64,000 nt of DNA from positions 66,226-130,225 of the forward strand of contig CAIWTN010000090.1 of NCBI GenBank assembly GCA_903915625.1. The letters run 5' to 3'. The translations under genes were made by a program, and so were the position numbers. Below, one piece after another: positions 5,317 to 26,485 of the stretch; position 1 is the stretch's first letter; each line of letters begins with the position of its first letter. The notes under the pieces were generated by a model. It was not told the origin of the DNA and searched no databases. It was given only the letters and a program-made list of their open reading frames with translations. Source of the stretch: an uncultured Pseudomonadota bacterium (lineage in GTDB: Bacteria > Bdellovibrionota_B > Oligoflexia > Oligoflexales > CAIYRB01).

Positions 5317-6794
5317 AACTTCGGGATGCGGCTGCCAATATGATTCGCTGTCTGCTCATAGGCTAGAGCGCCCTTAAGCAGAGCCTCTTCGCCGAGCGGT
5401 GGCCCAATCAACTGCATGCCGATCGGTAAGCCCTTTTCATCCCAACCGCATGGCACTGATAATGCCGGTAAACCAGCAAGATTTACTGCAAGTGTACAAA
5501 TGTCGCTTAAATACATAGCCAAGGGATCATCGATCTTTTCACCAAGCCGAAAGGCTGTCGTTGGCGAAGTCGGAGAGATTAGCCAATCCACATTAGCGAA
5601 GGCACGAGTAAACTCATTTGAGATTAGATGTCTGGCGGCTGTTGCTTTTGCATAGTAGGCATCGTAGTAGCCCGCAGACAGTGCAAATGTTCCAAGCATG
5701 ATGCGTTGCTTAACTTCCGTTCCGAACCCATGACTCCTGGTTTTCTGATACACGTCACGCAATGTGGCCCCGGCCTCTTCTTGCCTTTGGCCGTAGCGGA
5801 TACCGTCAAAGCGGGCAAGATTTGCCGATGCCTCAGCGGTGGCGATGAGATAGTAGGCCGAAATACTGTATTTTAGGGAAGGAAGACTTACTTCTTTGAT
5901 TTCCGCGCCGAGATCTTTGTAAAGGTCGACAGCCTTACTCAGGGCCTGCCGCGTAGATTCGTCAAGACCTGCGCTGAAAAACTCCTTAACGATACCTATG
6001 CGCTTACCTTTTAGATTGGTATCCGGGGAACCTACACCGTTACGTGTCTGAAATGGAGGTATCGCGCGACTTGTGCTGTCCCGTTGGTCATGTCCAGAGA
6101 TCACGTCAAACAGTAAAGCCGTATCTGCGACCGTGCGCGCGAATGGGCCTATCTGATCCAAGGATGATCCATAGGCGATTAAACCGTAGCGACTGACGGT
6201 GCCATAAGTGGGCTTGAGACCATAAATACCGCAAAATGCTGCCGGTTGACGAATCGACCCCCCTGTATCTGACCCAAGAGCAACTGGCGCTAAATCGGCA
6301 GCCACCGCTGCAGCAGAGCCACCTGAAGAACCACCCGGTACATAGTCGACGTTCCAGGGATTACGCACTGGACCATATGCCGAGTTTTCACTCGTACTGC
6401 CCATGGCAAACTCATCACAATTCGTTTTTCCGAATATGAGAGCTCCAGCAGCGACAAGCCGCTCAACCACATGGGCATCAAAGGGAGGGCGGAAATTTTC
6501 GAGCATCTTTGAAGCGCAGGTTGTTGGCACACTGCGCGTGCAGATGTTGTCCTTAATCAGGACTGGAACTCCCGCTAGCGGCAACTTCAGACCAGATTTT
6601 AACTTGGACTCTTGATCTTTAACTTGGTCTGCAATGTTAGATGCGTTCCAATAAAGATGCGTGTTTAGCTTGCTGGCATAAGCCTCGGTCCGCTGCACAT
6701 AGAAATCAGCTACTTCACGGATGCTGATATCCCCAGCATGGACACGCTGGCTGATTTCCGCAGCCGACAGCGAAAACGGCCGTAAATCGGACAC
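5313..6794 (-). CDS. gatA: Glutamyl-tRNA(Gln) amidotransferase subunit A
   Basis: Amidase signature region GGSSGGSAAAVAA..GSDTGGSIRQPA. 493 aa. Lies between gatC and gatB. Confidence 0.95.
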   Translation of the reverse strand: MSDLRPFSLSAAEISQRVHAGDISIREVADFYVQRTEAYASKLNTHLYWNASNIADQVKDQESKLKSGLKLPLAGVPVLIKDNICTRSVPTTCASKMLENFRPPFDAHVVERLVAAGALIFGKTNCDEFAMGSTSENSAYGPVRNPWNVDYVPGGSSGGSAAAVAADLAPVALGSDTGGSIRQPAAFCGIYGLKPTYGTVSRYGLIAYGSSLDQIGPFARTVADTALLFDVISGHDQRDSTSRAIPPFQTRNGVGSPDTNLKGKRIGIVKEFFSAGLDESTRQALSKAVDLYKDLGAEIKEVSLPSLKYSISAYYLIATAEASANLARFDGIRYGQRQEEAGATLRDVYQKTRSHGFGTEVKQRIMLGTFALSAGYYDAYYAKATAARHLISNEFTRAFANVDWLISPTSPTTAFRLGEKIDDPLAMYLSDICTLAVNLAGLPALSVPCGWDEKGLPIGMQLIGPPLGEEALLKGALAYEQTANHIGSRIPKF

Positions 6795-6806
6795 TTTTGT
6801 AGCCCC

Positions 6807-7130
6807 CTAGTCAATGATCCGCGGTACTTGAAAGGTAGTACCAGAGGTCTTAGCAGCATTGACTAGGGCAACTTCAGGGTCAAGCGAAGGCTGCGTCTGA
6901 TCCGGCCTTTCTTGCGGCTGTAGAGCAAAAGCTAGGGTAGTGGGGTCTGATTCCCCCTCATCTTGGCGAGGAATACTTGCCAACTCCCCAACGTAGTCCA
7001 AAATCCGCGACAGATGACGCTGGTAGTAACTAACCTCTTCGTCAGTAAGGACCAGATTTGCCAATCCAGCAACTTTCCTCACCGTGGACGAATCAATCGA
7101 ATCAGCTCTACCAGCAGCATCACCCGACAC
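6807..7130 (-). CDS. gatC: Asp/Glu-tRNA amidotransferase subunit C
   Basis: Small ORF directly upstream of gatA. GatC-like core (VRKVAGLANLVLTDEEV..YQRHLSRILDYV). Confidence 0.85.
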   Translation of the reverse strand: MSGDAAGRADSIDSSTVRKVAGLANLVLTDEEVSYYQRHLSRILDYVGELASIPRQDEGESDPTTLAFALQPQERPDQTQPSLDPEVALVNAAKTSGTTFQVPRIID

Positions 7131-13443: not shown

Positions 13444-13644
13444 TGGGGATAAACATGTAACTACAAGTACTTATTGAATAATTCGTGTATTTCGCCTGTT
13501 CATTGACGGTGGATAAATCAGTGGGCAAAATGGGGAGCAAATTGGGGATAAATCCACCCCCCCCAATTATCCACTTTTTACCCACAAGCAATCCCCGCAT
13601 GTTTTCAACCTGTTCTGAACAACTTACCCACAGGGTTACCCCCA
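13444..13644. promoter_or_regulatory. DnaA-box cluster (candidate oriC) in the dnaA-dnaN intergenic region
   Basis: Seven 9-mers within 2 mismatches of TTATCCACA. Reverse orientation: 13444-13452 and 13543-13551 (TTATCCCCA), 13508-13516 (TTATCCACC). Forward orientation: 13567-13575 (TTATCCACT), 13578-13586 and 13624-13632 (TTACCCACA), 13636-13644 (TTACCCCCA). Confidence 0.65.
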
Positions 13645-13653
13645 GGGAGCATT

Positions 13654-15165
13654 CTATTGAAGCTGTTCTAACTGCCGTTCTAATGTTTCGACGTGAGCCT
13701 TAAGATCCAGATCTCTGTCTAAGGTCTCTTCGATTTTTTTAACATTATGCATCACCGTAGTGTGGTCTTTGCCGCCGAATTTGTCGCCAATATCTGGGTA
13801 TGATGCATTGGTTAACTTGCGCGACAGGTACATAGCTATCTGCCTTGGTAAAGCGAATGCACGCTGACGCCGCTTAGATTTCAAATCTGCTATTTTGACC
13901 TTGAAATGTTCCGCGACGATCTTCTGTACGGCCTCAATCGTTAGCCTTCGGGGGGCTTCACCCAGCACGTCTCGAAACGTTCTGATGGCCAGATCCATCG
14001 TGATTTCTTCGCCTTGAAGAGCGGCGAAGGCATTGATTCTGTGGAGAGCACCTTCTAATTCTCTTACGTTTCGTTTCGCATGCTTGGCAATATACTCAGC
14101 AACATCAGGACGAAGTCGGATCTTAAGTTTATCGGCCTTGCTGTAAAGAATCGCAATCCTGTGCTCAACGCTAGGTGATTGGATGTCGGCTATCAGACCC
14201 CATTGAAAGCGATTGCGCAGTCGATCCTCGATATCCGGAATATCTTTCGGGAACATGTCCGAAGTGATGACAATCTGTTTTTTCGCAGCATAAAGAGTAT
14301 TGAAGGTATGAAAGAACTCTTCTTGGGTAGCTTTCTTACCAGAAATGAACTGGATATCATCGACCAAGAATACATCGCAATTACGGTATTTTTTTCGAAA
14401 GTCCCACATCTTAGCGAAACGCAAGCAGTAGATCATTTCATTCATGAAACGTTCACTTGCAATATAAGTAACAACCGCATTGGGATTGTTTTTCAGGACT
14501 AAATTACCGACGGCATGTAGGAGGTGAGTCTTACCTAGACCGGTACAGCCGTAAATGAAAAGGGGATTATAGGCCTTACCTGGATTTTCCGCGGCACTTA
14601 AGCAGGTTGCCACCGCAAATTGGTTGGAATCGCCTTTAATGAACGTGTCAAAAGTATAATTAGGGTTTAGGTGTCCCTCGGTCGATAACGAGCGAGAGAA
14701 TGCCTGCTTGGCTTCACCAGGCTCACCTATGGAATCGTAGGCCCCGATCTCCGGACCGAAATCACCACTAGTGTCGCCAGAAAAACTGATGTTGCTGCTT
14801 TGAACACCACTAGTACTTGACTGAGTAAACTCGGAGGGTAATCCGCCTTCGACTTCCACATTAATTTGCACATGATCGAGGCCAAGAGCATCTTTGCAGT
14901 GCTCTAGTTGGTACAGATACTCGTTCTGGAACCCCTGATAAAACACCATGTTTGGTAGAGTAATGGCGATATCGCCCGAACTGAGTAGTCGGCCTTGTAT
15001 CGGCTCGATCCAGCTCATAAAGGCATCTTCGTCGAGGATGTCCCGTAATTTTTGTTTGATGGCCATCCATGGGTTGTCGGTCGACCCACTAGTCCTTCCG
15101 CCACTCGAGGATGGTGCGGCGAAATCTTCAGCGGGAAACAGCGTTTGCATACCTGACTTATCCAT
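13654..15165 (-). CDS. dnaA: Chromosomal replication initiator protein DnaA
   Basis: AAA+ Walker A (GCTGLGKTHLLHA), sensor motifs and the C-terminal DNA-binding domain (DIGDKFGGKDHTTVMH). The longest ORF begins at a TTG (15261). I prefer the ATG at 15165 (MDKSGMQT..), which sits ahead of the conserved domain I (..AFMSWIEPI). The start remains uncertain. Confidence 0.92.
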   Translation of the reverse strand: MDKSGMQTLFPAEDFAAPSSSGGRTSGSTDNPWMAIKQKLRDILDEDAFMSWIEPIQGRLLSSGDIAITLPNMVFYQGFQNEYLYQLEHCKDALGLDHVQINVEVEGGLPSEFTQSSTSGVQSSNISFSGDTSGDFGPEIGAYDSIGEPGEAKQAFSRSLSTEGHLNPNYTFDTFIKGDSNQFAVATCLSAAENPGKAYNPLFIYGCTGLGKTHLLHAVGNLVLKNNPNAVVTYIASERFMNEMIYCLRFAKMWDFRKKYRNCDVFLVDDIQFISGKKATQEEFFHTFNTLYAAKKQIVITSDMFPKDIPDIEDRLRNRFQWGLIADIQSPSVEHRIAILYSKADKLKIRLRPDVAEYIAKHAKRNVRELEGALHRINAFAALQGEEITMDLAIRTFRDVLGEAPRRLTIEAVQKIVAEHFKVKIADLKSKRRQRAFALPRQIAMYLSRKLTNASYPDIGDKFGGKDHTTVMHNVKKIEETLDRDLDLKAHVETLERQLEQLQ

Positions 15166-15370: not shown

Positions 15371-15628
15371 GTGCCAAATCTTGGTAGAGCATTCAGCTAC
15401 TTAATCGCGGCCCAGGTTCAGGCCGTCAGCTTGATATTTCTTGCATATTGGGCTGGTGATTGGCTCAACAAAAACCACCCAATCGGTTTCAATTGGTACG
15501 TAGTTACTTTCACCATCGGCGTCTTGGGAGTTGCGCAAACCTTCTACGTAGTGATACGCGCAGCGATGATCCAGGGCAAGCAGCAGCCCGAAAAGACTGA
15601 CGACACGAAATCCGGCTCTGACGCATGA
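15371..15628 (+). CDS. AtpZ/AtpI-family small membrane protein (putative F0F1-ATPase accessory subunit)
   Basis: 85 aa with two TM helices. The motif LAYWAGDWLNK resembles the G-x-W-L-D core of the ATPase_gene1 family. GTG start. Sits at the head of the atpI-atpB-atpE block. Confidence 0.55.
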   Translation: MPNLGRAFSYLIAAQVQAVSLIFLAYWAGDWLNKNHPIGFNWYVVTFTIGVLGVAQTFYVVIRAAMIQGKQQPEKTDDTKSGSDA

Positions 15629-16023
15629 ACTCAACCATCCATAGATTGATAATTTTAGCCACGATTTCGTTGGCGGTGATCACTGTCTTGCCGCTGCCCA
15701 AAAACGCATCAACAGCGCTCGTTGCCGGTGAGTTTTTGTTCGCAGGAAATTCGGCGCTTTTGTTTTTTATAGCGCGGAAGATTTTTAACACTAATGTCAG
15801 TAATGTAGGTAATCGCCGTAGCGGAGTCTTTTTTCTCCTAGCGATTGCGCTTAAAGTTTTCGGTCTCGGACTCGGTATCTACATAGGTTTAGTGGTTTGG
15901 CGTCTGCCGGTAATATATTTTGTCAGCGGAGCCGTTGCTGGTCTGATTGTCCTTGTGCTTGCTGTTATGATTGGCCCCACCCACGGTGATAAAAAGGTGG
16001 AAGAAGTTTCGCACGCAGAGTAA
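15625..16023 (+). CDS. Putative ATP synthase protein I (membrane protein)
   Basis: 132 aa with four predicted TM segments. 4-nt overlap with the preceding ORF. Immediately upstream of atpB. Assigned by position and topology only. Confidence 0.45.
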   Translation: MNSTIHRLIILATISLAVITVLPLPKNASTALVAGEFLFAGNSALLFFIARKIFNTNVSNVGNRRSGVFFLLAIALKVFGLGLGIYIGLVVWRLPVIYFVSGAVAGLIVLVLAVMIGPTHGDKKVEEVSHAE

Positions 16024-16154
16024 CCTGCGCGGCGGATTGTATCCGTGAGAGAGTAAACTTTTTACTACCAAAGGATCTGGATCTAGGTTAGTAGATCAGT
16101 CCGTTTGACGATAGTGCCACTCTCTTCCTGTTCCTCGTGGAGCGCTGAGTAACC

Positions 16155-16946
16155 TTGAAGAATATAACTTTAAAACGATTGTGTGCTTTCGGTTTGCTCG
16201 GAGTAGCGGGACCTGCTTTAGGTGCTGAAGGTGGTGGCGCAGGCGTCGCGAACTTCATCAACTACTACGAAATTCTCTTGCACAGCCTGCATATTAGTCA
16301 CGTGTGGGAGCCTACCCTAGGGGGGCTTCTGTGCCTTCTTGTAATTGTACTTTGCGGATTGTACTACCGAGCCTCGGTAAATAAGTCGGGTGACGAGGTA
16401 GCTCCTTCGGAGAAGTTTTCCCTTCGTTTTTTAATCGAAGAGATGCTCGAGTTCGTAGTTGGGATAGCGAAGGACAATACCCAAGAGCAGTACCGGAACT
16501 TTTTCCCGTTTCTTGCGGCTCTTTTTGTTTACATCGTCGTGTGCAATTTATCGGGCCTGATTCCAGGTTTTCCTCCGCCTACAGAAACTATGGATAACAA
16601 TGTAGCGGTTGGTATCTGCACCTTTTTAGTTTACAACTATGCAGGGATTAAAGAGCACGGCACAGCTTATATTAAGCATTTTCTCGGCCCAGTGGTTTTT
16701 ATTGCTCCTTTGTTCTTTTGTATCGAATTAGTAAGTCACTTTTCACGCCCATTATCGCTAGGTCTTAGATTGACTGGCAACATTTATGGTGACCATACTT
16801 TGCTTGGCGTGTTTACTAGTTTGAGTTACTTAGTATTTCCAGCTTTATTGATGTTCTTTGGATTGATAGTAGCGATAGTTCAAAGCGTCGTGTTTACATT
16901 GTTATCTGGAATTTATATTTCAATGGCGATTTCTCACGACCATTGA
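16155..16946 (+). CDS. atpB: F0F1 ATP synthase subunit a
   Basis: Polytopic protein with the conserved Arg region (SRPLSLGLRLTGNIYGDHTLL). 263 aa. TTG start in the track. Confidence 0.9.
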   Translation: MKNITLKRLCAFGLLGVAGPALGAEGGGAGVANFINYYEILLHSLHISHVWEPTLGGLLCLLVIVLCGLYYRASVNKSGDEVAPSEKFSLRFLIEEMLEFVVGIAKDNTQEQYRNFFPFLAALFVYIVVCNLSGLIPGFPPPTETMDNNVAVGICTFLVYNYAGIKEHGTAYIKHFLGPVVFIAPLFFCIELVSHFSRPLSLGLRLTGNIYGDHTLLGVFTSLSYLVFPALLMFFGLIVAIVQSVVFTLLSGIYISMAISHDH

Positions 16947-17001
16947 TTGTTCATAAATTGGTGCGCCGTTCTAGGCACTTTTGAGAGTGGGGTAAGGGTT
17001 C

Positions 17002-17319
17002 ATGAAAGGTTTCTTCAGTAGAGCAGCGATGGCATTCGGTGGTTTGTTCTTAAGCTCTTTGGCGTTTGCCCAGGAAGCGGCGGCGTCGGCATCAGCTGGT
17101 AACAGCTGGGTTCCAATTGGTGCGGGTCTGACAATGGCCGTTGCATCCTTTGGTGCTGCAACTGCACAAGGGCGCACCGCAACTGCCGCTCTTGAAGGCA
17201 TTGCCCGCAACCCAAATGCGAAAGACGCTTTGTTCCAACCGTTCATTCTCGGTCTCGTGTTCATGGAATTCCAAGCTTTGCTCGGTTTCGTGATCGCGAT
17301 CATCTGGACGTTCAAGTGA
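17002..17319 (+). CDS. atpE: F0F1 ATP synthase subunit c
   Basis: Hairpin proteolipid: GLTMAVASFGAATAQG .. ARNP loop .. LGLVFMEFQAL with the essential carboxylate. Confidence 0.9.
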   Translation: MKGFFSRAAMAFGGLFLSSLAFAQEAAASASAGNSWVPIGAGLTMAVASFGAATAQGRTATAALEGIARNPNAKDALFQPFILGLVFMEFQALLGFVIAIIWTFK

Positions 17320-17352
17320 GATTTTCTCTCTAGTTCGCCAGTGACAGACAGA

Positions 17353-17392
17353 AGCGGCATCAACTTAAGTGTTTGATGCCGCTGTTTTTTTT
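17353..17392 (+). terminator. Rho-independent terminator after atpE
   Basis: Stem AGCGGCATCAA (17353-17363) pairs with TTGATGCCGCT (17373-17383). A T8 run follows at 17385-17392. Confidence 0.8.
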
Positions 17393-17398
17393 GGATTT

Positions 17399-17414
17399 TG
17401 TTCCACGTGGAACA
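17399..17414. promoter_or_regulatory. parS: parS centromere site 1 (TGTTCCACGTGGAACA)
   Basis: Perfect 16-bp palindrome. Differs from the consensus TGTTNCACGTGAAACA at one position. Confidence 0.85.
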
Positions 17415-17975
17415 ATCTTTAGTCGCGGGGCGTTTTTAGAAAACTCTACGCCGAGGCGTCCCTGTAAAAGTTCGGAAATGCCTATTGACCCGCCTTTCTC
17501 TTGGCCGGCGTGGCCGTCTCTTACCCTTCTAGCGTCACGGTCTAGGTGCCGGGACCTTGGCGTGTTTTTCAGCATTGGTGTCGAGTTTGCAGTAGCCCTA
17601 ACAGAAATAGGAGCTCGTAGGTGCCCATTTGCGTGTCAAGACCTGCTGGTCGGTCCCGTGAATGAGGCGGCTAGGTAAGATCTACCGGCGCATAAGGGTG
17701 GCGGCACTGCTCATGACGGGCTGAAGGCTGAGGCAGTCTCTCCGGGCACCCAAGACGCTCCGTAATCGGTCATCATTCTCTTCAACTTGCGCTGTCCGCA
17801 TGCTTCAAGCTTATAGGAACATCGGTCCTCTTGGTCGTTTCGCTGCGGACACGGCCGGCTGAGGCGGTCTCAATTCTAACGGGCAAGTTGGCGGGTTCTA
17901 GGCAGTGGGCAGTCTAGGTCAATCATCAGTGATAGGAGATGAGGCTTCGCGGTTATGAAATCGGCTTAGGGCGAG

Positions 17976-17991
17976 AGAATTATATAATTCT
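17976..17991. repeat. Perfect 16-bp palindrome AGAATTATATAATTCT, function unknown
   Basis: Read directly. An AT-only island inside GC-normal non-coding DNA. It contains TATAAT on both strands. Confidence 0.9.
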
Positions 17992-18131
17992 GTGCGGCAC
18001 GGCCGTCTTTCGCCTAGTTGGATTCCGCTATTTCCTTGTTTTGGAGGCGGTGTTCGCTGCTTCGACGTAACGGTGGTTTACAAATGGGGTTCCGCGGGTC
18101 GATGTGCGTTGGAAGTTTCGTGACGCCTCGA

Positions 18132-18147
18132 TGTTCCACGTGGAACA
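18132..18147. promoter_or_regulatory. parS: parS centromere site 2 (TGTTCCACGTGGAACA)
   Basis: Identical to site 1. Confidence 0.85.
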
Positions 18148-18735
18148 AATCCTAGGTAGGTGTATTTTGACCGGAAAAACTGGAGGTTAGGGTGATCTTC
18201 TCGCCCTTGGCAGACAGATTCTTGGCCGAGTGAATCATAGAGTCCCATAGTAGAAGCTGTTTGCTAGGCTAGGCTGGAGTCGTAGGTTGATTTCTATTCG
18301 TTCAAGACCGCAATAGCGCTAGCGCGTGGTGAGATGTGTGGTGTGGTCAGGATTCTTTCGTGTCCGAAACAGGATCTAGGATTCCGTCTGTGGCGGGCAA
18401 CTTCGAACGATTGCAAATAGGCTGGCTTTCCGCGCGATGCTCCTCTGAAAGTTTTTTCGGGGGAGTGAGGTCGATCTATTTCGCTTCGCTGCCACATCGG
18501 TAGCCTCTGCGCAGCGAAACGTGGCCTTTGACTCATTAAGCGCTCGATTGCGCTGTGGCGAGGTTGTTCGTTGTCGGTGTGGGTTGGGGCGGCACTCTAG
18601 CTGGCCTCGGCCCCCAAGAGTGGGGGAGCGACTCGTCGAATATCCGGTGACTATCGCCTTAAGTCTAAGTTGCCTGCAATGCAATAATTGCCGTAACATA
18701 TTGGTATTATTGATATAAATGGCAAATATTTAATG

Positions 18736-18751
18736 TGTTCCACGTGGAACA
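18736..18751. promoter_or_regulatory. parS: parS centromere site 3 (TGTTCCACGTGGAACA)
   Basis: Identical to sites 1 and 2. Confidence 0.85.
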
Positions 18752-18870
18752 TCCCAGCCAGAAAATCTGCCAGGATCAGTTTATCTTAGAAAAAATCTCA
18801 ATTACATGCGCAAAAGTCAGTAAATTCGACCTTAAGATTACTTGAGATGCCCCAAAGTAACTTATTCGGA

Positions 18871-19010
18871 TCAAAAAAAGAATTTTGCCCCAAAAAAAAC
18901 GTTTTTTGTGTCAAAAAAAGGTTTTTACAGAGAAAAGACAATTTTTTTTTAAAAAAAGAACTTTTTCGCTCTTGGAAGAGCTTTTTTTGCATAAAAATTA
19001 AGTTTTTTTG
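18871..19010. repeat. Phased A-tract/T-tract quasi-palindromes (A7-8 N1-4 T4-6 units)
   Basis: A-runs begin at 18873, 18892, 18913 and 18951, each followed by a T-run (for example CAAAAAAAACGTTTTTTG). There is also a T9A7 junction at 18942-18957 and T7 runs at 18982 and 19003. Confidence 0.8.
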
Positions 19011-19046
19011 TAAATACCCGTACTAATGAGATTTTTCATAGCAAAT

Positions 19047-19062
19047 TGTTCCACGTGAAACA
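19047..19062. promoter_or_regulatory. parS: parS centromere site 4 (TGTTCCACGTGAAACA)
   Basis: Exact match to the consensus TGTTNCACGTGAAACA. Confidence 0.9.
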
Positions 19063-19098
19063 AAAATAAAAACAAAATAATTTTGTTTATAGCCATAA

Positions 19099-19114
19099 TG
19101 TTCCACGTGAAACA
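19099..19114. promoter_or_regulatory. parS: parS centromere site 5 (TGTTCCACGTGAAACA)
   Basis: Exact match to the consensus, 52 bp from site 4 and about 100 bp upstream of parA. Confidence 0.9.
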
Positions 19115-19144
19115 ATTTGAGGTGCAGCAAGGCGCGTTAAGCTC

Positions 19145-19173
19145 TTCTCAAAGGGCAAGCCCATTGCTATAGT
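19145..19173 (+). promoter_or_regulatory. Candidate sigma-70 promoter for parAB (TTCTCA-17 nt-TATAGT)
   Basis: Hexamers at 19145-19150 and 19168-19173 with a 17-nt spacer, 45 nt upstream of the parA ATG. A GGAGA RBS precedes the ATG. Pattern match only. Confidence 0.3.
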
Positions 19174-19217
19174 CGGCCCCTTGTCCCTCCAATTGTGTTC
19201 GCAGCGGAGACAGTCCA

Positions 19218-20051
19218 ATGGCCCGTGTAATAGCGGTTTCCAACCAAAAGGGAGGCGTGGGGAAAACCACTTCTGCCATAAATATCGCAGCTTGTCTGGC
19301 GGCGGCCGAAAAGCGGGTCCTTGTAATTGACTTGGACCCTCAGGCGAACGCGGGGAGTGGGCTTGGTATATATCGAGGCGACTTCGACACCAGCATGTAT
19401 AACGTTCTGGTTGAAGAGGTACCCATCACGACGGCAATACTACATACCGAACTAAAGTGCCTCGACCTGGCCCCATCAGTTCAGGATTTAGTCGGTGCCG
19501 AGGTTGAGTTGGTGTCGGCTATAGGGCGTGAGGCTCGTCTCAAGGAGGCTCTCGAGCCGGTCCAAAAGCTTTACGACTTTATTATTATCGACTGTCCTCC
19601 GGCCCTCGGAATATTGACAGTAAATGCTCTGACTGCAGCCGACGCGGTGCTGATTCCCCTGCAGTGTGAGTACTACGCAATGGAGGGGCTGTCTCAGCTC
19701 ATCAAAACCATCTCGTTGATCAAAAAGAGGCTGAATCCAGGATTGGAGCGGGAAGGTATTTTATTGACCATGTACGATCGTCGTAACAACTTGTCGCATC
19801 AAGTCGAGCAGGATATCAGGGCTCATTTTGGCGACGAAGTATTTCCGGTGGTGATTCCCCGCAATGTAAAGCTGTCCGAAGCCCCTTCCCACGGCAAACC
19901 AGTGATTCTATACGACATCAACAGCACCGGCGCAGTGGCTTATATGGAGACCGCGCGGCTGCTGATTAGGCGCAACCAGGCTAGGATTGCGGGGCGCCAG
20001 CGGGCAGAAAAAGGATCGCAGACTAAGCAGAGACCGTCCGACCATCAGTGA
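19218..20051 (+). CDS. parA: Chromosome partitioning ATPase ParA (Soj)
   Basis: Deviant Walker A (VSNQKGGVGKTTSAINIA). ParA-family motifs throughout. 277 aa. Confidence 0.95.
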   Translation: MARVIAVSNQKGGVGKTTSAINIAACLAAAEKRVLVIDLDPQANAGSGLGIYRGDFDTSMYNVLVEEVPITTAILHTELKCLDLAPSVQDLVGAEVELVSAIGREARLKEALEPVQKLYDFIIIDCPPALGILTVNALTAADAVLIPLQCEYYAMEGLSQLIKTISLIKKRLNPGLEREGILLTMYDRRNNLSHQVEQDIRAHFGDEVFPVVIPRNVKLSEAPSHGKPVILYDINSTGAVAYMETARLLIRRNQARIAGRQRAEKGSQTKQRPSDHQ

Positions 20052-20058
20052 GGAAGTG

Positions 20059-21000
20059 ATGACTATACGTGATAAAGCAGCGCCGCCTAGACGAGGTGCC
20101 TTAGGCAAGGGTATCTCGTCACTGCTTGGTGATATAGACGGAGAGGGCAAAGAGGCTGAATCTGCGGCCGCCAAGGTGGCTGAAGCCCACGCAAAGCGAC
20201 GACTAGAAGCTGAAGTCATCAAGCTTGACGTGAATGAAATTGACCCTAATCCGCGTCAACCACGCAAGCTATTCGATGATAAGGCGCTGAGAGAACTGTC
20301 CGAGAGCCTCAAGATAGACGGCGTCCTTCAGCCCATCGTAGTGACTCAGTCGGATCGATCCGGACGTTATTATGTGGTCGCCGGCGAACGACGCCTTAGG
20401 GCCTCTAAGCTCGCTGGTCTTCCTACTGTTCCGGCGATCGTGCGCGAGGGCGCAGCGAATGACCTTTTGCGCCTAGCCCTCATCGAAAACATTCAGCGTG
20501 CCGATCTCAACGTCCTTGAAGAGGCCGAAGCCTACGCCGCTTTGATCAAGGATTACGGACTGACGCAAGAACAGTGCGCAGATAAAGTTGGGAAAGAGCG
20601 ATCCACGGTAGCGAATTCACTCCGGATGCTTAGCTTACCCAAGGAGCTTCAGGACGATATTGTGACCGCCCGACTAACGATGGGCCACGGGCGCGCGATA
20701 CTGTCGCTTGACGACAAGAAGTTGATGCTTCGTTGTCGTGACATAGTCATAAAAAAATCGCTAAGCGTCCGGCAAACCGAACAACTTTGCAAAACTATTA
20801 AGGCCCCGGTCAAGAATGACGGCAAGTCTTCTGCGATAAAGGATGAGGCAGACCTTCAGTACATCACCGAAAGTCTTCGCACTTATCTTCACACCAAAGT
20901 CAGAGTCGCCGGTAGCACTAGTCGAGGCAAAATAGAAATTTCGTATTTCTCAGCGGCAGAGCTCGAGCGACTTTTAAAAGTTATGGGACATCGCTTTTAA
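20059..21000 (+). CDS. parB: Chromosome partitioning protein ParB (Spo0J)
   Basis: N-terminal GLGKGISSLLG, the ParB box with the CTPase motif (VVAGERRLRASKLAG), and an HTH (TQEQCADKVGKERSTVANSLRML). The start is set at the ATG at 20059, preceded by AGGAAG. The ORF-track start at 19987 would overlap parA. Confidence 0.93.
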   Translation: MTIRDKAAPPRRGALGKGISSLLGDIDGEGKEAESAAAKVAEAHAKRRLEAEVIKLDVNEIDPNPRQPRKLFDDKALRELSESLKIDGVLQPIVVTQSDRSGRYYVVAGERRLRASKLAGLPTVPAIVREGAANDLLRLALIENIQRADLNVLEEAEAYAALIKDYGLTQEQCADKVGKERSTVANSLRMLSLPKELQDDIVTARLTMGHGRAILSLDDKKLMLRCRDIVIKKSLSVRQTEQLCKTIKAPVKNDGKSSAIKDEADLQYITESLRTYLHTKVRVAGSTSRGKIEISYFSAAELERLLKVMGHRF

Positions 21001-21140
21001 AATCAGTCGCAACTCCGGCGCCAAAAATTTAATTATCTAAACAGCGTAAATCGGCTTGTTCGTTTGGCAAAAGTGCGTTAATCAGGGTCGCCCAAGCTGT
21101 TTGCCTTATTTTTCGTTTGCATTGCTCGCAGGTGACATCC

Positions 21141-21572
21141 ATGGCTACGCTAAATCTTATACCTAACCCCATGGTCCTAGGCGCTCAGATAGGCGTGTTC
21201 TATTTAAATTTCATTGCTGTAAAGAAATTATTCGTCCAACCATATTTGTCAGTGCGTGATCGCCGCCAGGCGCTAACCTTCGGCAGCCAGGACGAGGCGA
21301 CTAAGGCCTTAGCCCGCTGTGATCGCATAAGTAAGGACATCGAGTCCCGATATATTGCTTCGGCTACTGAGGCTAAGGCTGATCGCGAACAATTGCGAGA
21401 ACAAGCTCAAATTGCCAGGCAGACACTACTTAGCGCTGCTGAAAAGGACGCTAAGGCTGAAATAGCCAATGTGGAAAAGCAGATTCGCGAAGATCTGGCT
21501 ACGGAGAAAGAAAAGATACCTGGCGTAATCAAGTCTTTGTCGGATGAAGTTTATAAGCTCGCCCTGATCTGA
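21141..21572 (+). CDS. F0F1 ATP synthase subunit b-prime (b-like)
   Basis: A single N-terminal TM helix followed by a long charged coiled coil. Directly precedes a second b-type subunit. ATG at 21141 is preferred over the track start at 21117. Confidence 0.65.
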   Translation: MATLNLIPNPMVLGAQIGVFYLNFIAVKKLFVQPYLSVRDRRQALTFGSQDEATKALARCDRISKDIESRYIASATEAKADREQLREQAQIARQTLLSAAEKDAKAEIANVEKQIREDLATEKEKIPGVIKSLSDEVYKLALI

Positions 21573-21588
21573 TCGGAGATATCTGGAT

Positions 21589-22092
21589 ATGGAAGATCAT
21601 TTTGATATGTTGATGGGAGTTATTCTTCCATACGCGAATTTTGCAATCTTTTTGGGATTGGCGATTTATTTTTTCCGCAAGCCAGCTGCAGCTGCCGCGA
21701 AAAAGCGTCGCGAGCAGTACAGTAAGCTAGTCGCCGAGGCTACGGCTGCTCGAGATGCCGCCGTTGCTAAGCTTGATGAATTAAAAAAGAGGGAAGAGTC
21801 GCTTGCCGATGAATTAGCGAGTATAAAGGCAGCCTCGCACGAGAGCGCAGAGCAAGAGGCTTTCAAAATCGTCGCGGATGCAGAGCGGCTCGCTAGCCAC
21901 CTGCGGGCCGAAGCGGGGCGGATCGCGGCTGCGGAAGTGGCAAAGGCCCGTGCGGAACTGCGCAAAGAGATCGTCGACACTGTCACTGCCAGTGTGAAAG
22001 AAAAACTAGTGCGCGAATTAAGCGTAGATACGCAGTTGGTTTTGGCTCGCAAAAAGATAGATGAATTGAAGCACGTCGGCGCGGATAGCTGA
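21589..22092 (+). CDS. atpF: F0F1 ATP synthase subunit b
   Basis: An N-terminal TM helix plus an Ala/Glu/Lys/Arg-rich helix. Lies before atpH. Confidence 0.8.
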   Translation: MEDHFDMLMGVILPYANFAIFLGLAIYFFRKPAAAAAKKRREQYSKLVAEATAARDAAVAKLDELKKREESLADELASIKAASHESAEQEAFKIVADAERLASHLRAEAGRIAAAEVAKARAELRKEIVDTVTASVKEKLVRELSVDTQLVLARKKIDELKHVGADS

Positions 22093-22099
22093 GGTTTAC

Positions 22100-22645
22100 A
22101 TGTCACGGATTGCTAAACGGTATGCACAGGCTCTGTTGAAATTAACAGCAGGGGACCTTGGTAAAGCGAAAAACTACCGCGATAGTTTGAATGAATTGAA
22201 GGCGCTTTTTGGCCTCAATGAGGCGGCTAAGGTTCTTTATAGCCCCGTTATGCCGAACGACCTAAAAAAGAGTCTGCTGTCATACGGGCTAAAGGCGGCT
22301 AATGCTGGGGACGAGCTTAGCCAGATGGTCAACACCGTGGTCGATGCCGGGCGCGTTAGTTTGTTGCCGCAGGTTATCGACGTATTCGCCAAGCTGATCG
22401 ATGAGGCGGAGGGAAAAGTGCATGCGGAAGTTACCTCCGCTGTTTCGCTGCCGTCGGAAGATACTAAACAGATTGCAACCGCGCTAAGTCACTTGCTCGG
22501 CAAAAACGCAGAGATTACGCAGCTAGTCGATAGCTCGCTACTCGGGGGATTTGTCGTAAAAGTCGGTGATTATGTGGTCGACTTAAGCTTGAAAACCAAG
22601 CTTGAAGGTCTGGCCAACGCCGCGGTCCAAGATACTTTTCGTTAA
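22100..22645 (+). CDS. atpH: F0F1 ATP synthase subunit delta (OSCP)
   Basis: 181 aa. Starts with IAKRYAQAL.. as in OSCP. The C-terminal LGGFVVKVGDYVVDLSLKTKL motif is present. Confidence 0.88.
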   Translation: MSRIAKRYAQALLKLTAGDLGKAKNYRDSLNELKALFGLNEAAKVLYSPVMPNDLKKSLLSYGLKAANAGDELSQMVNTVVDAGRVSLLPQVIDVFAKLIDEAEGKVHAEVTSAVSLPSEDTKQIATALSHLLGKNAEITQLVDSSLLGGFVVKVGDYVVDLSLKTKLEGLANAAVQDTFR

Positions 22646-22657
22646 GGGAAGGCCGTC

Positions 22658-24169
22658 ATGAGCACAGAGAAGATCCGAGTAGAAGAAGTCAGCCGAATCA
22701 TCAGTGAGCGAATCAAGAACTACGGGCAAACCGCAGAGCTTCAGGAAACAGGCACCGTGCTCACTGTCGGCGACGGCATTGCGCGCGCCTATGGTCTTGA
22801 AGGCGCTATGGCAGGCGAGCTGGTTCAGTTTGAAAACGGAACCCGCGGCGTAGTTTTGAACCTCGAAGAAGACAATGTCGGTATCGCCATTTTCGGAAAC
22901 GTAAAAGGGATCGCAGAGGGCCAGGTCGTCAAGCGGCTCAAAGAGATTAATTCGGTGCCAGTAGGCGACGCGCTTTTGGGTCGCGTGGTAAATGCACTGG
23001 GCGAGCCAATCGACGGCCAAGGACCAGTTAACACGACTGAGACAGGTATTGTCGAAGTTAAGGCTCCCGGAATCATCGACCGTAAGTCGGTGCACGAGCC
23101 TCTGCAAACCGGTATTAAAGCAATTGATGCCATGACACCTATTGGTCGTGGTCAACGGGAATTGATCATTGGCGACCGGCAAACCGGCAAGACGACGATT
23201 TGCGTTGATACGATCATCAATCAAAAGGGCAAGGACGTAATCTGTATTTACGTTGCGATCGGCCAAAAGGCCTCGACCGTAGCCCAGGTCGTTGAGAAGC
23301 TGAAGCGTTTTGGCGCGATGGATTACACAATCGTGGTGGCCGCTACTGCGATTGACCCGGCACCGATGCAGTTCGTCGCACCATATTCGGGCTGTCGAAT
23401 GGCTGAGTACTTCCTGCATAAGGGCAAGCATGCGGTCATTTTCTACGATGACCTTTCGAAGCAAGCTGCTGCTTATCGTGAGTTATCGTTGTTGCTCCGC
23501 CGTCCTCCGGGTCGGGAAGCGTACCCAGGCGACGTATTTTACGTGCATAGTCGCTTGCTCGAGCGCGCTTGCAAGTTAAATGACAAGCTGGGCGCGGGTT
23601 CCATCACGGCATTCCCGGTGGTAGAAACACAAGCGGGTGATATCTCCGCCTATATTCCAACGAACGTGATTTCGATCACCGACGGGCAGATCTTCCTGGA
23701 AAGTGATCTTTTCTTCTCAGGTATCCGTCCAGCGATTAATGCCGGCCTTTCCGTGTCGCGGGTAGGCGGAGCAGCGCAGGTCCCTGGCATGAAGAAGGTC
23801 GCCGGATCGCTGCGCCTCGAATTGGCTCAATTTCGCGAATTAGCCGCATTTTCTCAATTCGGTTCCGACCTTGACCAGTCCACTCAAAGGACCCTCAAGC
23901 GCGGTGAGCGCCTCGTGGAGATCCTTAAGCAGGGTCAATACGCGCCAATGCAAGTTGGTCTTCAGATCGCCTCAATTTTTGCGGTGACCAAGGGCTACTT
24001 GGACAAGCGTGATGTTTCGCAGGTAGGGGAGTGGGAAAAAGGCATGCACGAATATCTGCTTGCACGTTACCCACAAGTAGCTGAGAAGCTCGAAAAGCGC
24101 GCCAAACTGGAAGATGTCCAAGCCGACTTGGTTAAGGCCATTGAAGAATTCGACAAGGGATTCAAGTAA
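22658..24169 (+). CDS. atpA: F0F1 ATP synthase subunit alpha
   Basis: Walker A GDRQTGKT. Highly conserved alpha-subunit sequence throughout. Confidence 0.98.
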
Positions 24170-25050
24170 TGCCAAGTTTAAAGGATATTCGCCGCCGCAT
24201 CGGCAGCGTGAAAAACACGCAGAAAATTACGCGCGCAATGAAATTAGTTGCCGCCGCGAAGTTCGCGCGTGCTAACGCAGCCGTCGTGGCCGCTAGGCCT
24301 TACGGCGCAGCCTTTCAGGCAATGGTTGAGCGTCTGGTGGCGGCAGCGGGTGGGAGTGTACCATCACCGCTCCTGAACGAACGCGAAGAGCATAAGATTT
24401 TGCTAGTGCTTCTTTCGACTGATCGTGGTTTTTGCGGTGGCTTGAATTCGAATTTGTTTAAGCAGGCCGTACAGTTTATCAATGCAAAAAGGCGTGACGG
24501 CGTTCAAGTAGACCTGATGCCTTGGGGACGCAGAGCTCGTCAATTTAGCGCAAAGTTGAGCTACGAAGTTCAAGACCCGCGGGAAAAAGTTCTTGATAAA
24601 CCGAGTTATGGTCTAGCCAAGGAATTGGCGGCGGACTTAGTACATCGCTTTGAACACGAGGGTTACGATCGGGTTTATCTGGGATTTGTCGAGTTTAAGT
24701 CGGCAATGTCGCAGGTTCCGAAATTTGCCCAGGTGTTGCCGGTAGGAAAGAGCCACTCCGGAAGGTCTCACAAAGAGCCGGAAATCGCTTTTGGGCCCGA
24801 TATTTTGGTAGAGCCGTCTATTCAAGAAGTACTCGAACAGGTTTTAAAGAGAGAAGTGGCTGGATTGATCTTCCGCGCCATGTTGGAGGGCGCAGCGTCC
24901 GAACACGGGGCTAGGATGACGGCAATGGATTCGGCAACAAACAATGCCAATGAAGTGCTGCGTCGGATGAAGATTCAATATAACCGCGCCCGGCAAGCAG
25001 CAATTACTAAAGAACTTATTGAAATCACCAGCGGCGCCCAGGCCCTGTGA
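24169..25050 (+). CDS. atpG: F0F1 ATP synthase subunit gamma
   Basis: N-terminal LKDIRRRIGSVKNTQKITRAMKLVAAAK and C-terminal ITKELIEI..GA. Confidence 0.95.
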   Translation: MPSLKDIRRRIGSVKNTQKITRAMKLVAAAKFARANAAVVAARPYGAAFQAMVERLVAAAGGSVPSPLLNEREEHKILLVLLSTDRGFCGGLNSNLFKQAVQFINAKRRDGVQVDLMPWGRRARQFSAKLSYEVQDPREKVLDKPSYGLAKELAADLVHRFEHEGYDRVYLGFVEFKSAMSQVPKFAQVLPVGKSHSGRSHKEPEIAFGPDILVEPSIQEVLEQVLKREVAGLIFRAMLEGAASEHGARMTAMDSATNNANEVLRRMKIQYNRARQAAITKELIEITSGAQAL

Positions 25051-25054
25051 GTGA

Positions 25055-26485
<1,431 letters not shown>

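Follow-up and report, generated by a model that had tools for sequence, protein, structure and literature searches.

In ParABS systems, ParB-CTP clamps load at parS sites and then slide onto the adjoining DNA, and centromere regions with multiple sites near parAB are known from Caulobacter and Myxococcus. In the well-studied species ParB spreads over transcribed genes, and to our knowledge non-coding DNA is not a requirement for this spreading. In B. bacteriovorus two parS sites are present near parAB, rsmG-like and unknown genes lie upstream of parA, and the DNA flanking parS is reported to modulate the formation of the ParB complex (PMC10547168). The locus described here belongs to a stretch of 64,000 nucleotides from an uncultured Bdellovibrionota-related bacterium, which was analysed as a whole (the window), and it resembles the origin-proximal chromosomal parS clusters in several respects: its 16-bp palindromes fit the universal parS consensus, several of them are grouped in 1.7 kb immediately ahead of parAB, the cluster is located approximately 4 kb from DnaA boxes and the GC-skew minimum, and the sites are strictly conserved. 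It differs from the known clusters in that its five sites all fall in one gene-free gap of 1.9 kb, which interrupts the atp operon, and in that two of the intervals consist of 0.6-0.7 kb of GC-normal DNA without constraint. The window parAB is thereby found in an atp context, in contrast to the rsmG-parAB context of B. bacteriovorus (PMC10547168). With a probability that we put at roughly three in four, the segment between the first and third sites (17415-18735) is neutral, sequence-unconstrained spacer DNA between the parS sites of an origin-proximal, centromere-like cluster.

On the left of the gap, gyrB, dnaN and dnaA are encoded on the minus strand. Six DnaA boxes (at most one mismatch) are clustered within 190 bp (13444-13632) of the dnaN-dnaA intergenic region, with the cumulative GC-skew minimum beside them at 14013, and this spacer, about 4 kb to the left of the parS cluster, is the likely oriC. 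From the position of the boxes and of the skew minimum, the plus strand of the gap is the leading strand. A location of oriC in the gap itself was considered and rejected because the boxes cluster elsewhere, and none with up to one mismatch was found in 17415-18735.

The parS-parA-parB unit is contained inside a split ATP synthase operon (15371-26485), in the order atpI-like, atpB, atpE, parS cluster, parAB, atpF', atpF, atpH, atpA, atpG, atpD, atpC, and this arrangement is kept in every relative recovered. The operon starts with two small plus-strand ORFs (15371-16023), possibly atpI-like and without a Pfam match, followed by atpB (16155-16946, plus strand), atpE (17002-17319, plus strand) and an intrinsic terminator (17352-17392, plus strand), composed of a GC-rich hairpin and a T8 run, which closes the atpI-atpB-atpE unit. 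On the other side of the gap are parA (19218-20051, plus strand), encoding a protein of 277 aa with Pfam CbiA, AAA_31 and ParA matches, and parB (20059-21000, plus strand), the start of which was set from the ParB genes of relatives (313-314 aa); ParB_N and HTH_ParB domains are recorded in Pfam for its orthologues in these relatives. The flagged segment thus lies inside the 1.9 kb gene-free gap between the atpE terminator and parA. Open frames of 150 codons are missing from 17436-19172, the longest such region in the window, and the other apparent gaps of the window hold ordinary ORFs. The gene-free segment of about 1.3 kb that an earlier note on this DNA had described between parS sites is therefore real: it is bounded by parS1 and parS3, and includes a third perfect site.

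The sites parS1 (17399-17414, TGTTCCACGTGGAACA), parS2 (18132-18147, within the flagged segment) and parS3 (18736-18751) are perfect 16-bp palindromes, and parS4 (19047-19062) and parS5 (19099-19114) both read TGTTCCACGTGAAACA, with one mismatch to TGTTCCACGTGGAACA. All five are 16-bp inverted repeats that fit the parS consensus TGTTNCACGTGAAACA, and these three perfect and two one-mismatch sites compare with 0.01 expected by chance. They divide the segment into spacer 1 (17415-18131, 717 bp) and spacer 2 (18148-18735, 588 bp), both GC-normal, non-coding and unconstrained in sequence, and are followed by an AT-rich interval (18752-19046) between parS3 and parS4.

In order to compare this gap with its counterparts, we gathered relatives through a search for ParA homologues, the members of 90% identity clusters and look-ups of the encoding contigs. 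Four close lineages were distinguished, with ParA at least 97% identical to that of the window: A (the window, gap of 1898 bp), B (contigs L180-L186, 1661-1675 bp), C (L190-L192, 1857 bp) and D (L167, 1967 bp). The parS1-5 sites occur in the same order in all four, each identical at 15-16 of 16 positions, and the similarity of the flanks collapses immediately outside them. The start-to-start spacings are 733, 604, 311 and 52 bp in A, about 589, 513-527, 310 and 52 bp in B, 693, 603, 309 and 53 bp in C, and 825, 582, 309 and 52 bp in D. The gap presents what is expected of a ParABS centromere, that is, consensus repeats, an adjoining parA-parB operon, an origin-proximal position, and purifying selection on the sites relative to their flanks. 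Judged from conservation, its functional elements appear to be the 16-bp parS palindromes and the AT-rich region with the parA promoter.

Among the more distant relatives, the gap measures 1966 bp in L175, 1039 bp in L168, 763 bp in L177 and 659 bp in L178, and approximately 1672 bp in L179, where a run of 100 N falls within 5329-7000. The nearest species-level genome among the matches listed is a Bdellovibrionota MAG (L002, ParA 75%), with the same gene order as the window and a gap that shares only parS with it. In every relative the interval from atpE to parA includes 659 bp or more of non-coding DNA and 3-6 parS sites; in L177 and L178 these sites are 40-70 bp apart. In a rough tree of DnaA and ParA, gaps above 1.6 kb are found in A-D, L175 and L179, with L168 nested among them, and the shorter gaps belong to the L177/L178 clade and to L002. 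L175 and L179 are deep relatives, with saturation at fourfold sites. A survey of 38 other bacteria for ORF-free gaps ahead of parA was not counted as evidence, because the open-frame criterion is GC-biased.

A chimeric join or other assembly artefact would be a trivial explanation for such a segment, and many short metagenome contigs do break near the atpE terminator or shortly upstream of parA. Contigs L163-L166, L169-L174, L176, L187-L189 and L001 either end up to about 100 bp past the terminator or begin approximately 100-820 bp (most of them 100-390 bp) upstream of parA, a pattern that fits strain-level variation or poor coverage of the AT-rich part. Exact look-ups gave a similar picture, with five short contigs stopping near the terminator for AtpE, and only a 2 kb contig starting at 18872 for the window ParA. 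In addition, contig L162, which is 88% identical to the window across atpB-atpE, runs past the terminator into unrelated sequence, namely 538 bp of GC-normal DNA (1426-1963 of that contig) that lacks parS1 and has no match among the fetched sequences; this variant reflects either a chimeric join or a lineage in which the spacer was replaced. However, homologous gaps were found in independent assemblies from JGI, ENA, NCBI and Logan, and homologous spacers, 63-66% identical and accompanied by all five parS sites, are present on long contigs (L180-L186 and L190-L192, up to 236 kb) of independent samples, built with independent assemblers, so that an artefact is scarcely credible for the window itself.

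The segment does not code for protein. Its longest ORFs are those given in the earlier note (101 aa at 17373-17678 on the plus strand and 107 aa at 18376-18699 on the minus strand), and it is true that all its frames are closed, yet this is the level expected by chance, since the longest open stretch has 117 codons compared with 120.7 ± 27.6 in shuffled sequences. The segment has a period-3 signal of 0.55, compared with a median of 5.8 over the window, and the mismatches with relatives have a lag-3 autocorrelation of 0.01-0.09 in the spacers, against 0.22 in parA. Neither a protein-coding gene nor small ORFs are indicated within the segment, where we observed no codon periodicity and no concentration of substitutions at third bases.

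Could the segment descend from a gene? The earlier note had pointed out that mnmG and rsmG are missing upstream of parA and had proposed a decayed remnant of them. Indeed, the interval from atpE to parA contains neither gene, nor did either turn up among the ORFs tested in the 64 kb of the window, but no collinear or other protein similarity supports the proposed decay. Six-frame searches of the segment returned no match in Pfam (E ≤ 1), among 5.8 billion proteins (E ≤ 0.01) or in the PDB (E ≤ 1), which holds MnmG and RsmG structures, and the equivalent gap DNA of L167 and L175, searched as X-masked translations, gave no protein similarity either. Likewise, blastn against plasmid and phage collections found no match to the segment, and no terminal inverted or direct repeats were detected, the parS sites being the only repeats in it. 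A wider version of this idea is that the DNA is the ancient relic of a gene or several genes, mnmG/rsmG among the candidates, or of an old insertion, for instance a mobile element, now randomised beyond recognition. The additional 1.3 kb or so is missing from the L177/L178 clade and from L002, suggesting a past gain of DNA; in these three, parS1 is followed by a spacer of only about 360-630 bp, which is AT-rich in L002 and at its start in L178, and has 39-45% GC in L177. Furthermore, at the neutral rate measured below, a pseudogene that predates the divergence of A and D could no longer be detected. Against it stand the empty searches, the lack of terminal repeats other than parS, and the fact that the conserved neighbour of parA in this clade is atpE and not rsmG. 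We consider such an origin improbable, and it would account only for where the DNA came from, not for its present nature.

The base composition of the segment had also been taken as a sign of function. Its GC content is indeed not low (0.530 versus 0.502 in the rest of the window), but the argument fails, since the spacers have the GC content of fourfold-degenerate sites and are at substitutional equilibrium. The fourfold sites of the window genes have a GC content of 0.51-0.52, with T at 0.285 and A at about 0.20, and the spacers have 0.53, 0.277 and 0.193, respectively, while the substitutions on the window branch are balanced (45 AT>GC and 54 GC>AT). The seemingly normal GC content is thus the value at which unconstrained DNA of this genome comes to equilibrium, and the G/T excess of the spacers (G>C, T>A) fits the leading-strand skew next to oriC.

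The tetranucleotide CTAG is present in 12 copies in 17415-18735 (9.1 per kb, against 2.5 per kb elsewhere in the window), with an enrichment of 2.5-3.7 times in the spacers of the window, and CTAGG is mostly found on the plus strand of the segment. CTAG or CTAGG was considered as a binding motif and rejected, as it is not enriched in L167, L168 or most other lineages. No GC-containing k-mer is common to eight independent lineages, which share only A-tracts. The CTAG enrichment probably reflects relaxed avoidance in unconstrained DNA plus chance.

The rate of evolution was assessed with the fourfold-degenerate sites of dnaA, atpB and parA as the neutral yardstick, and with spacer identities (17415-18735) computed over ungapped alignment columns. 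Fourfold and spacer identities are 0.78 and 0.656 between A and B, 0.70 and 0.635 between A and C, and 0.70 and 0.631 between B and C, respectively. Within lineage B both are 0.975 (L180-L181), and between A and D, at a fourfold identity of 0.61, the spacers are no longer alignable. The spacers therefore appear to evolve at, or somewhat above, the synonymous rate. Hypervariable, faster-than-neutral spacers were considered as well, and rejected: in Jukes-Cantor terms the spacer distance exceeds that of the fourfold sites by a factor of only about 1.3-1.8, an excess that is expected for unconstrained DNA with alignment uncertainty.

Insertions and deletions are also frequent, with 61-311 gap columns in the alignments between lineages and indels of 90-150 bp; blocks of about 130 bp in spacer 1 and about 90 bp in spacer 2 are missing in B. 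In the comparison with D, BLAST finds only parS in the spacer region, and the global alignment of the spacers reaches a z of about 2.6 over shuffles (2.65 for spacer 1), compared with 14.8 for the AT-rich interval and 27 for the parA leader in the same test. No conserved island besides parS was found in the segment with a 40-nt sliding window over A, B and C. In spacer 2 of L180-L186 (alignment columns about 233-260), a 7-bp tandem repeat (CGGATCT) is present in 2-4 copies, and this number varies among lineage B contigs that are otherwise 97-100% identical.

In these properties the spacers are like ordinary bacterial intergenic DNA, with a rate close to synonymous, many indels, copy-number variation of microsatellite type, a random-like ORF content and motifs that are not shared across lineages. 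They are unlike it in being unusually long for a compact genome, in not being AT-rich, and in having a similar length in deep relatives.

A large structured RNA was another proposal of the earlier note. At gathering thresholds, Rfam gave no match across the whole window, and a permissive scan (E ≤ 5) of 17200-19300 yielded only noise, located in the AT-rich part. In single-sequence folding, spacer 1 has a z of +0.04 on the plus and -0.34 on the minus strand, and spacer 2 of -2.68 on the plus strand (3 of 100 shuffles) and -0.81 on the minus strand. RNAalifold was applied to the three-lineage alignment (A, B, C) in windows of 160 columns, with shuffled columns for comparison, and between the parS sites its z ranges from -2.3 to +2.0 on either strand, with the low covariation power of three alignable lineages; significant values are restricted to windows with a parS palindrome, the terminator or the inverted A/T tracts of the AT-rich part. 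The consensus fold of spacer 2 has -67 kcal/mol over 615 columns, compared with -214 kcal/mol for the single sequence. The stem TTCGCTGC..GCAGCGAA (18482-18519), singled out in the earlier note, does exist in the window but is broken in the relatives: in the lineage alignment it is paired in 50% of the cells, with no compensatory change, and seven of its eight pairs depart by unpaired cells only.

Transcription from the plus strand of one large RNA, or of several small ones, would suit the G+U-richness of that strand, the folding of spacer 2 and the 27 pairs with double changes reported by RNAalifold, an uncontrolled count in which the structure was derived from the same alignment. Contrary to it are the lack of an Rfam family, the chance-level folding of spacer 1, the alignment-level z values, the loss of consensus energy, and the divergence at or above the synonymous rate with indels of 90-150 bp. 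In addition, no promoter-like site was found inside the segment when 17200-19300 was scanned, terminator-like sites are at chance level in it, and the strong atpE terminator immediately upstream is conserved (93-100% in lineages B and C, 94% in D). The only points in common with the large RNAs of Rfam (OLE, GOLLD, HEARO and ROOL) are the size range and the absence of ORFs, whereas a covariance-model match, conserved blocks and a conserved structure are all lacking. The structured-RNA idea is effectively refuted, and we attach very little probability to any RNA gene in the segment.

The situation is different in the AT-rich interval between parS3 and parS4, which has 27-35% GC and a length fixed at 293-295 bp in lineages A-D. 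From about 18880 rightwards, pairwise identity is 0.57-0.93 and three-way identity 0.55-0.85, although conservation in the left part (about 18752-18880) does not exceed that of the spacers, with a three-way identity of 0.33-0.45 (about 18750-18860). A sigma-70-like promoter (19145-19173, plus strand), the sole promoter-like match in 17200-19300, is found upstream of parA, and the windows covering 19143-19202 are 100% identical across A, B and C. On the evidence of these alignments, the constrained non-coding part of the gap appears to be the AT-rich/A-tract block and not the flagged spacers.

An array of A-tracts with a period of roughly 20 bp, or two helical turns, extends over 18872-19010 and may represent intrinsic DNA bending or an array of binding sites. 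Similar 20-bp-period arrays recur in L175 (5966-6112, 6.4 copies at 99%) and in L167 (6655-6749).

As a whole, the observation made in the earlier note was confirmed, and its three hypotheses were only partly supported. The nucleoprotein scaffold comes closest to the evidence, in that a conserved five-site parS cluster is present, but the DNA between the sites has no detectable sequence constraint. In the mechanism that we propose, ParB-CTP clamps would load at the parS sites and slide over the neighbouring spacer DNA, with the spacers of 717 and 588 bp separating the first three of the five sites. The spacers encode no protein and no conserved RNA, and drift near-neutrally, their sequence turning over completely within a species-group. 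We infer both the loading and sliding of ParB at this locus and the absence of a sequence-independent role for the spacers.

Some observations speak against a purely neutral reading. Gaps of 1.66-1.97 kb persist in the four close lineages and in the deep L175 and L179, the plus strand of spacer 2 folds somewhat better than shuffled sequences, and CTAG is enriched in the window. Moreover, a tightly packed genome would not usually carry 1.3 kb of useless DNA. Bacterial genomes usually have a deletion bias, and the persistence of a long gap in spite of it is a hint of selection on its presence or length. The spacer may then be selected independently of its sequence, as long transcription-free DNA that makes the ParB partition complex larger or insulates it, for instance because clamps have space to slide between the strong terminator and the parA promoter. 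The gap lengths of A-D (1661-1967 bp), L175 and L179 (1966 and 1672 bp), maintained despite complete sequence turnover, argue for this possibility, together with the at least 659 bp of non-coding DNA and 3-6 parS sites in every relative, and the order of the five sites, kept with hundreds of bp within both parS1-2 and parS2-3. In B. bacteriovorus, the DNA flanking parS was also reported to control ParB complex formation (PMC10547168), and an effect of flanking-DNA context is conceivable at the window cluster by analogy.

Several points are contrary to selection on length. Spacer 1 measures 717, 572-574, 677 and 809 bp in A, B, C and D, and spacer 2 588, 497-511, 587 and 566 bp, respectively, and variation of about 20-40% among very close, near-identical lineages speaks against length being tightly constrained. 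The gap of L168 has only 1039 bp even though this contig is nested among long-gap lineages, those of L177 and L178 are as short as 763 and 659 bp, their parS sites being separated by 40-70 bp, no requirement of non-coding DNA for ParB spreading is known to us, and the sample comprises ten lineages. The pattern of gap lengths allows either selection for long silent DNA or repeated gain with a weak deletion bias, and we regard the former as a tentative possibility, on the unlikely side. A stronger form of it, in which the spacers are the bacterial counterpart of a 'regional' centromere, with length and silence under selection and sequence left free, seems to us doubtful; if true, it would explain the persistence of gaps above 1.6 kb past synonymous saturation in this Bdellovibrionota-related clade.

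These results carry a caution, as DNA that is GC-normal and ORF-free indicates by itself neither a hidden RNA nor a dead gene, and in this case the relatives reveal plain neutral drift around five conserved ParB sites. Neutral spacer DNA, the reading that we favour, also allows two quantities to be read cleanly from within an uncultured Bdellovibrionota-related lineage, namely the neutral rate and the base composition at equilibrium (about 50% GC with a leading-strand G/T skew). Of wider interest is the persistence of more than 1.6 kb of unconstrained DNA in a centromere-like region of a compact genome: if its length is selected, this bears on how the ParB partition complex is built, and if it is not, deletion bias must be weak at this locus.
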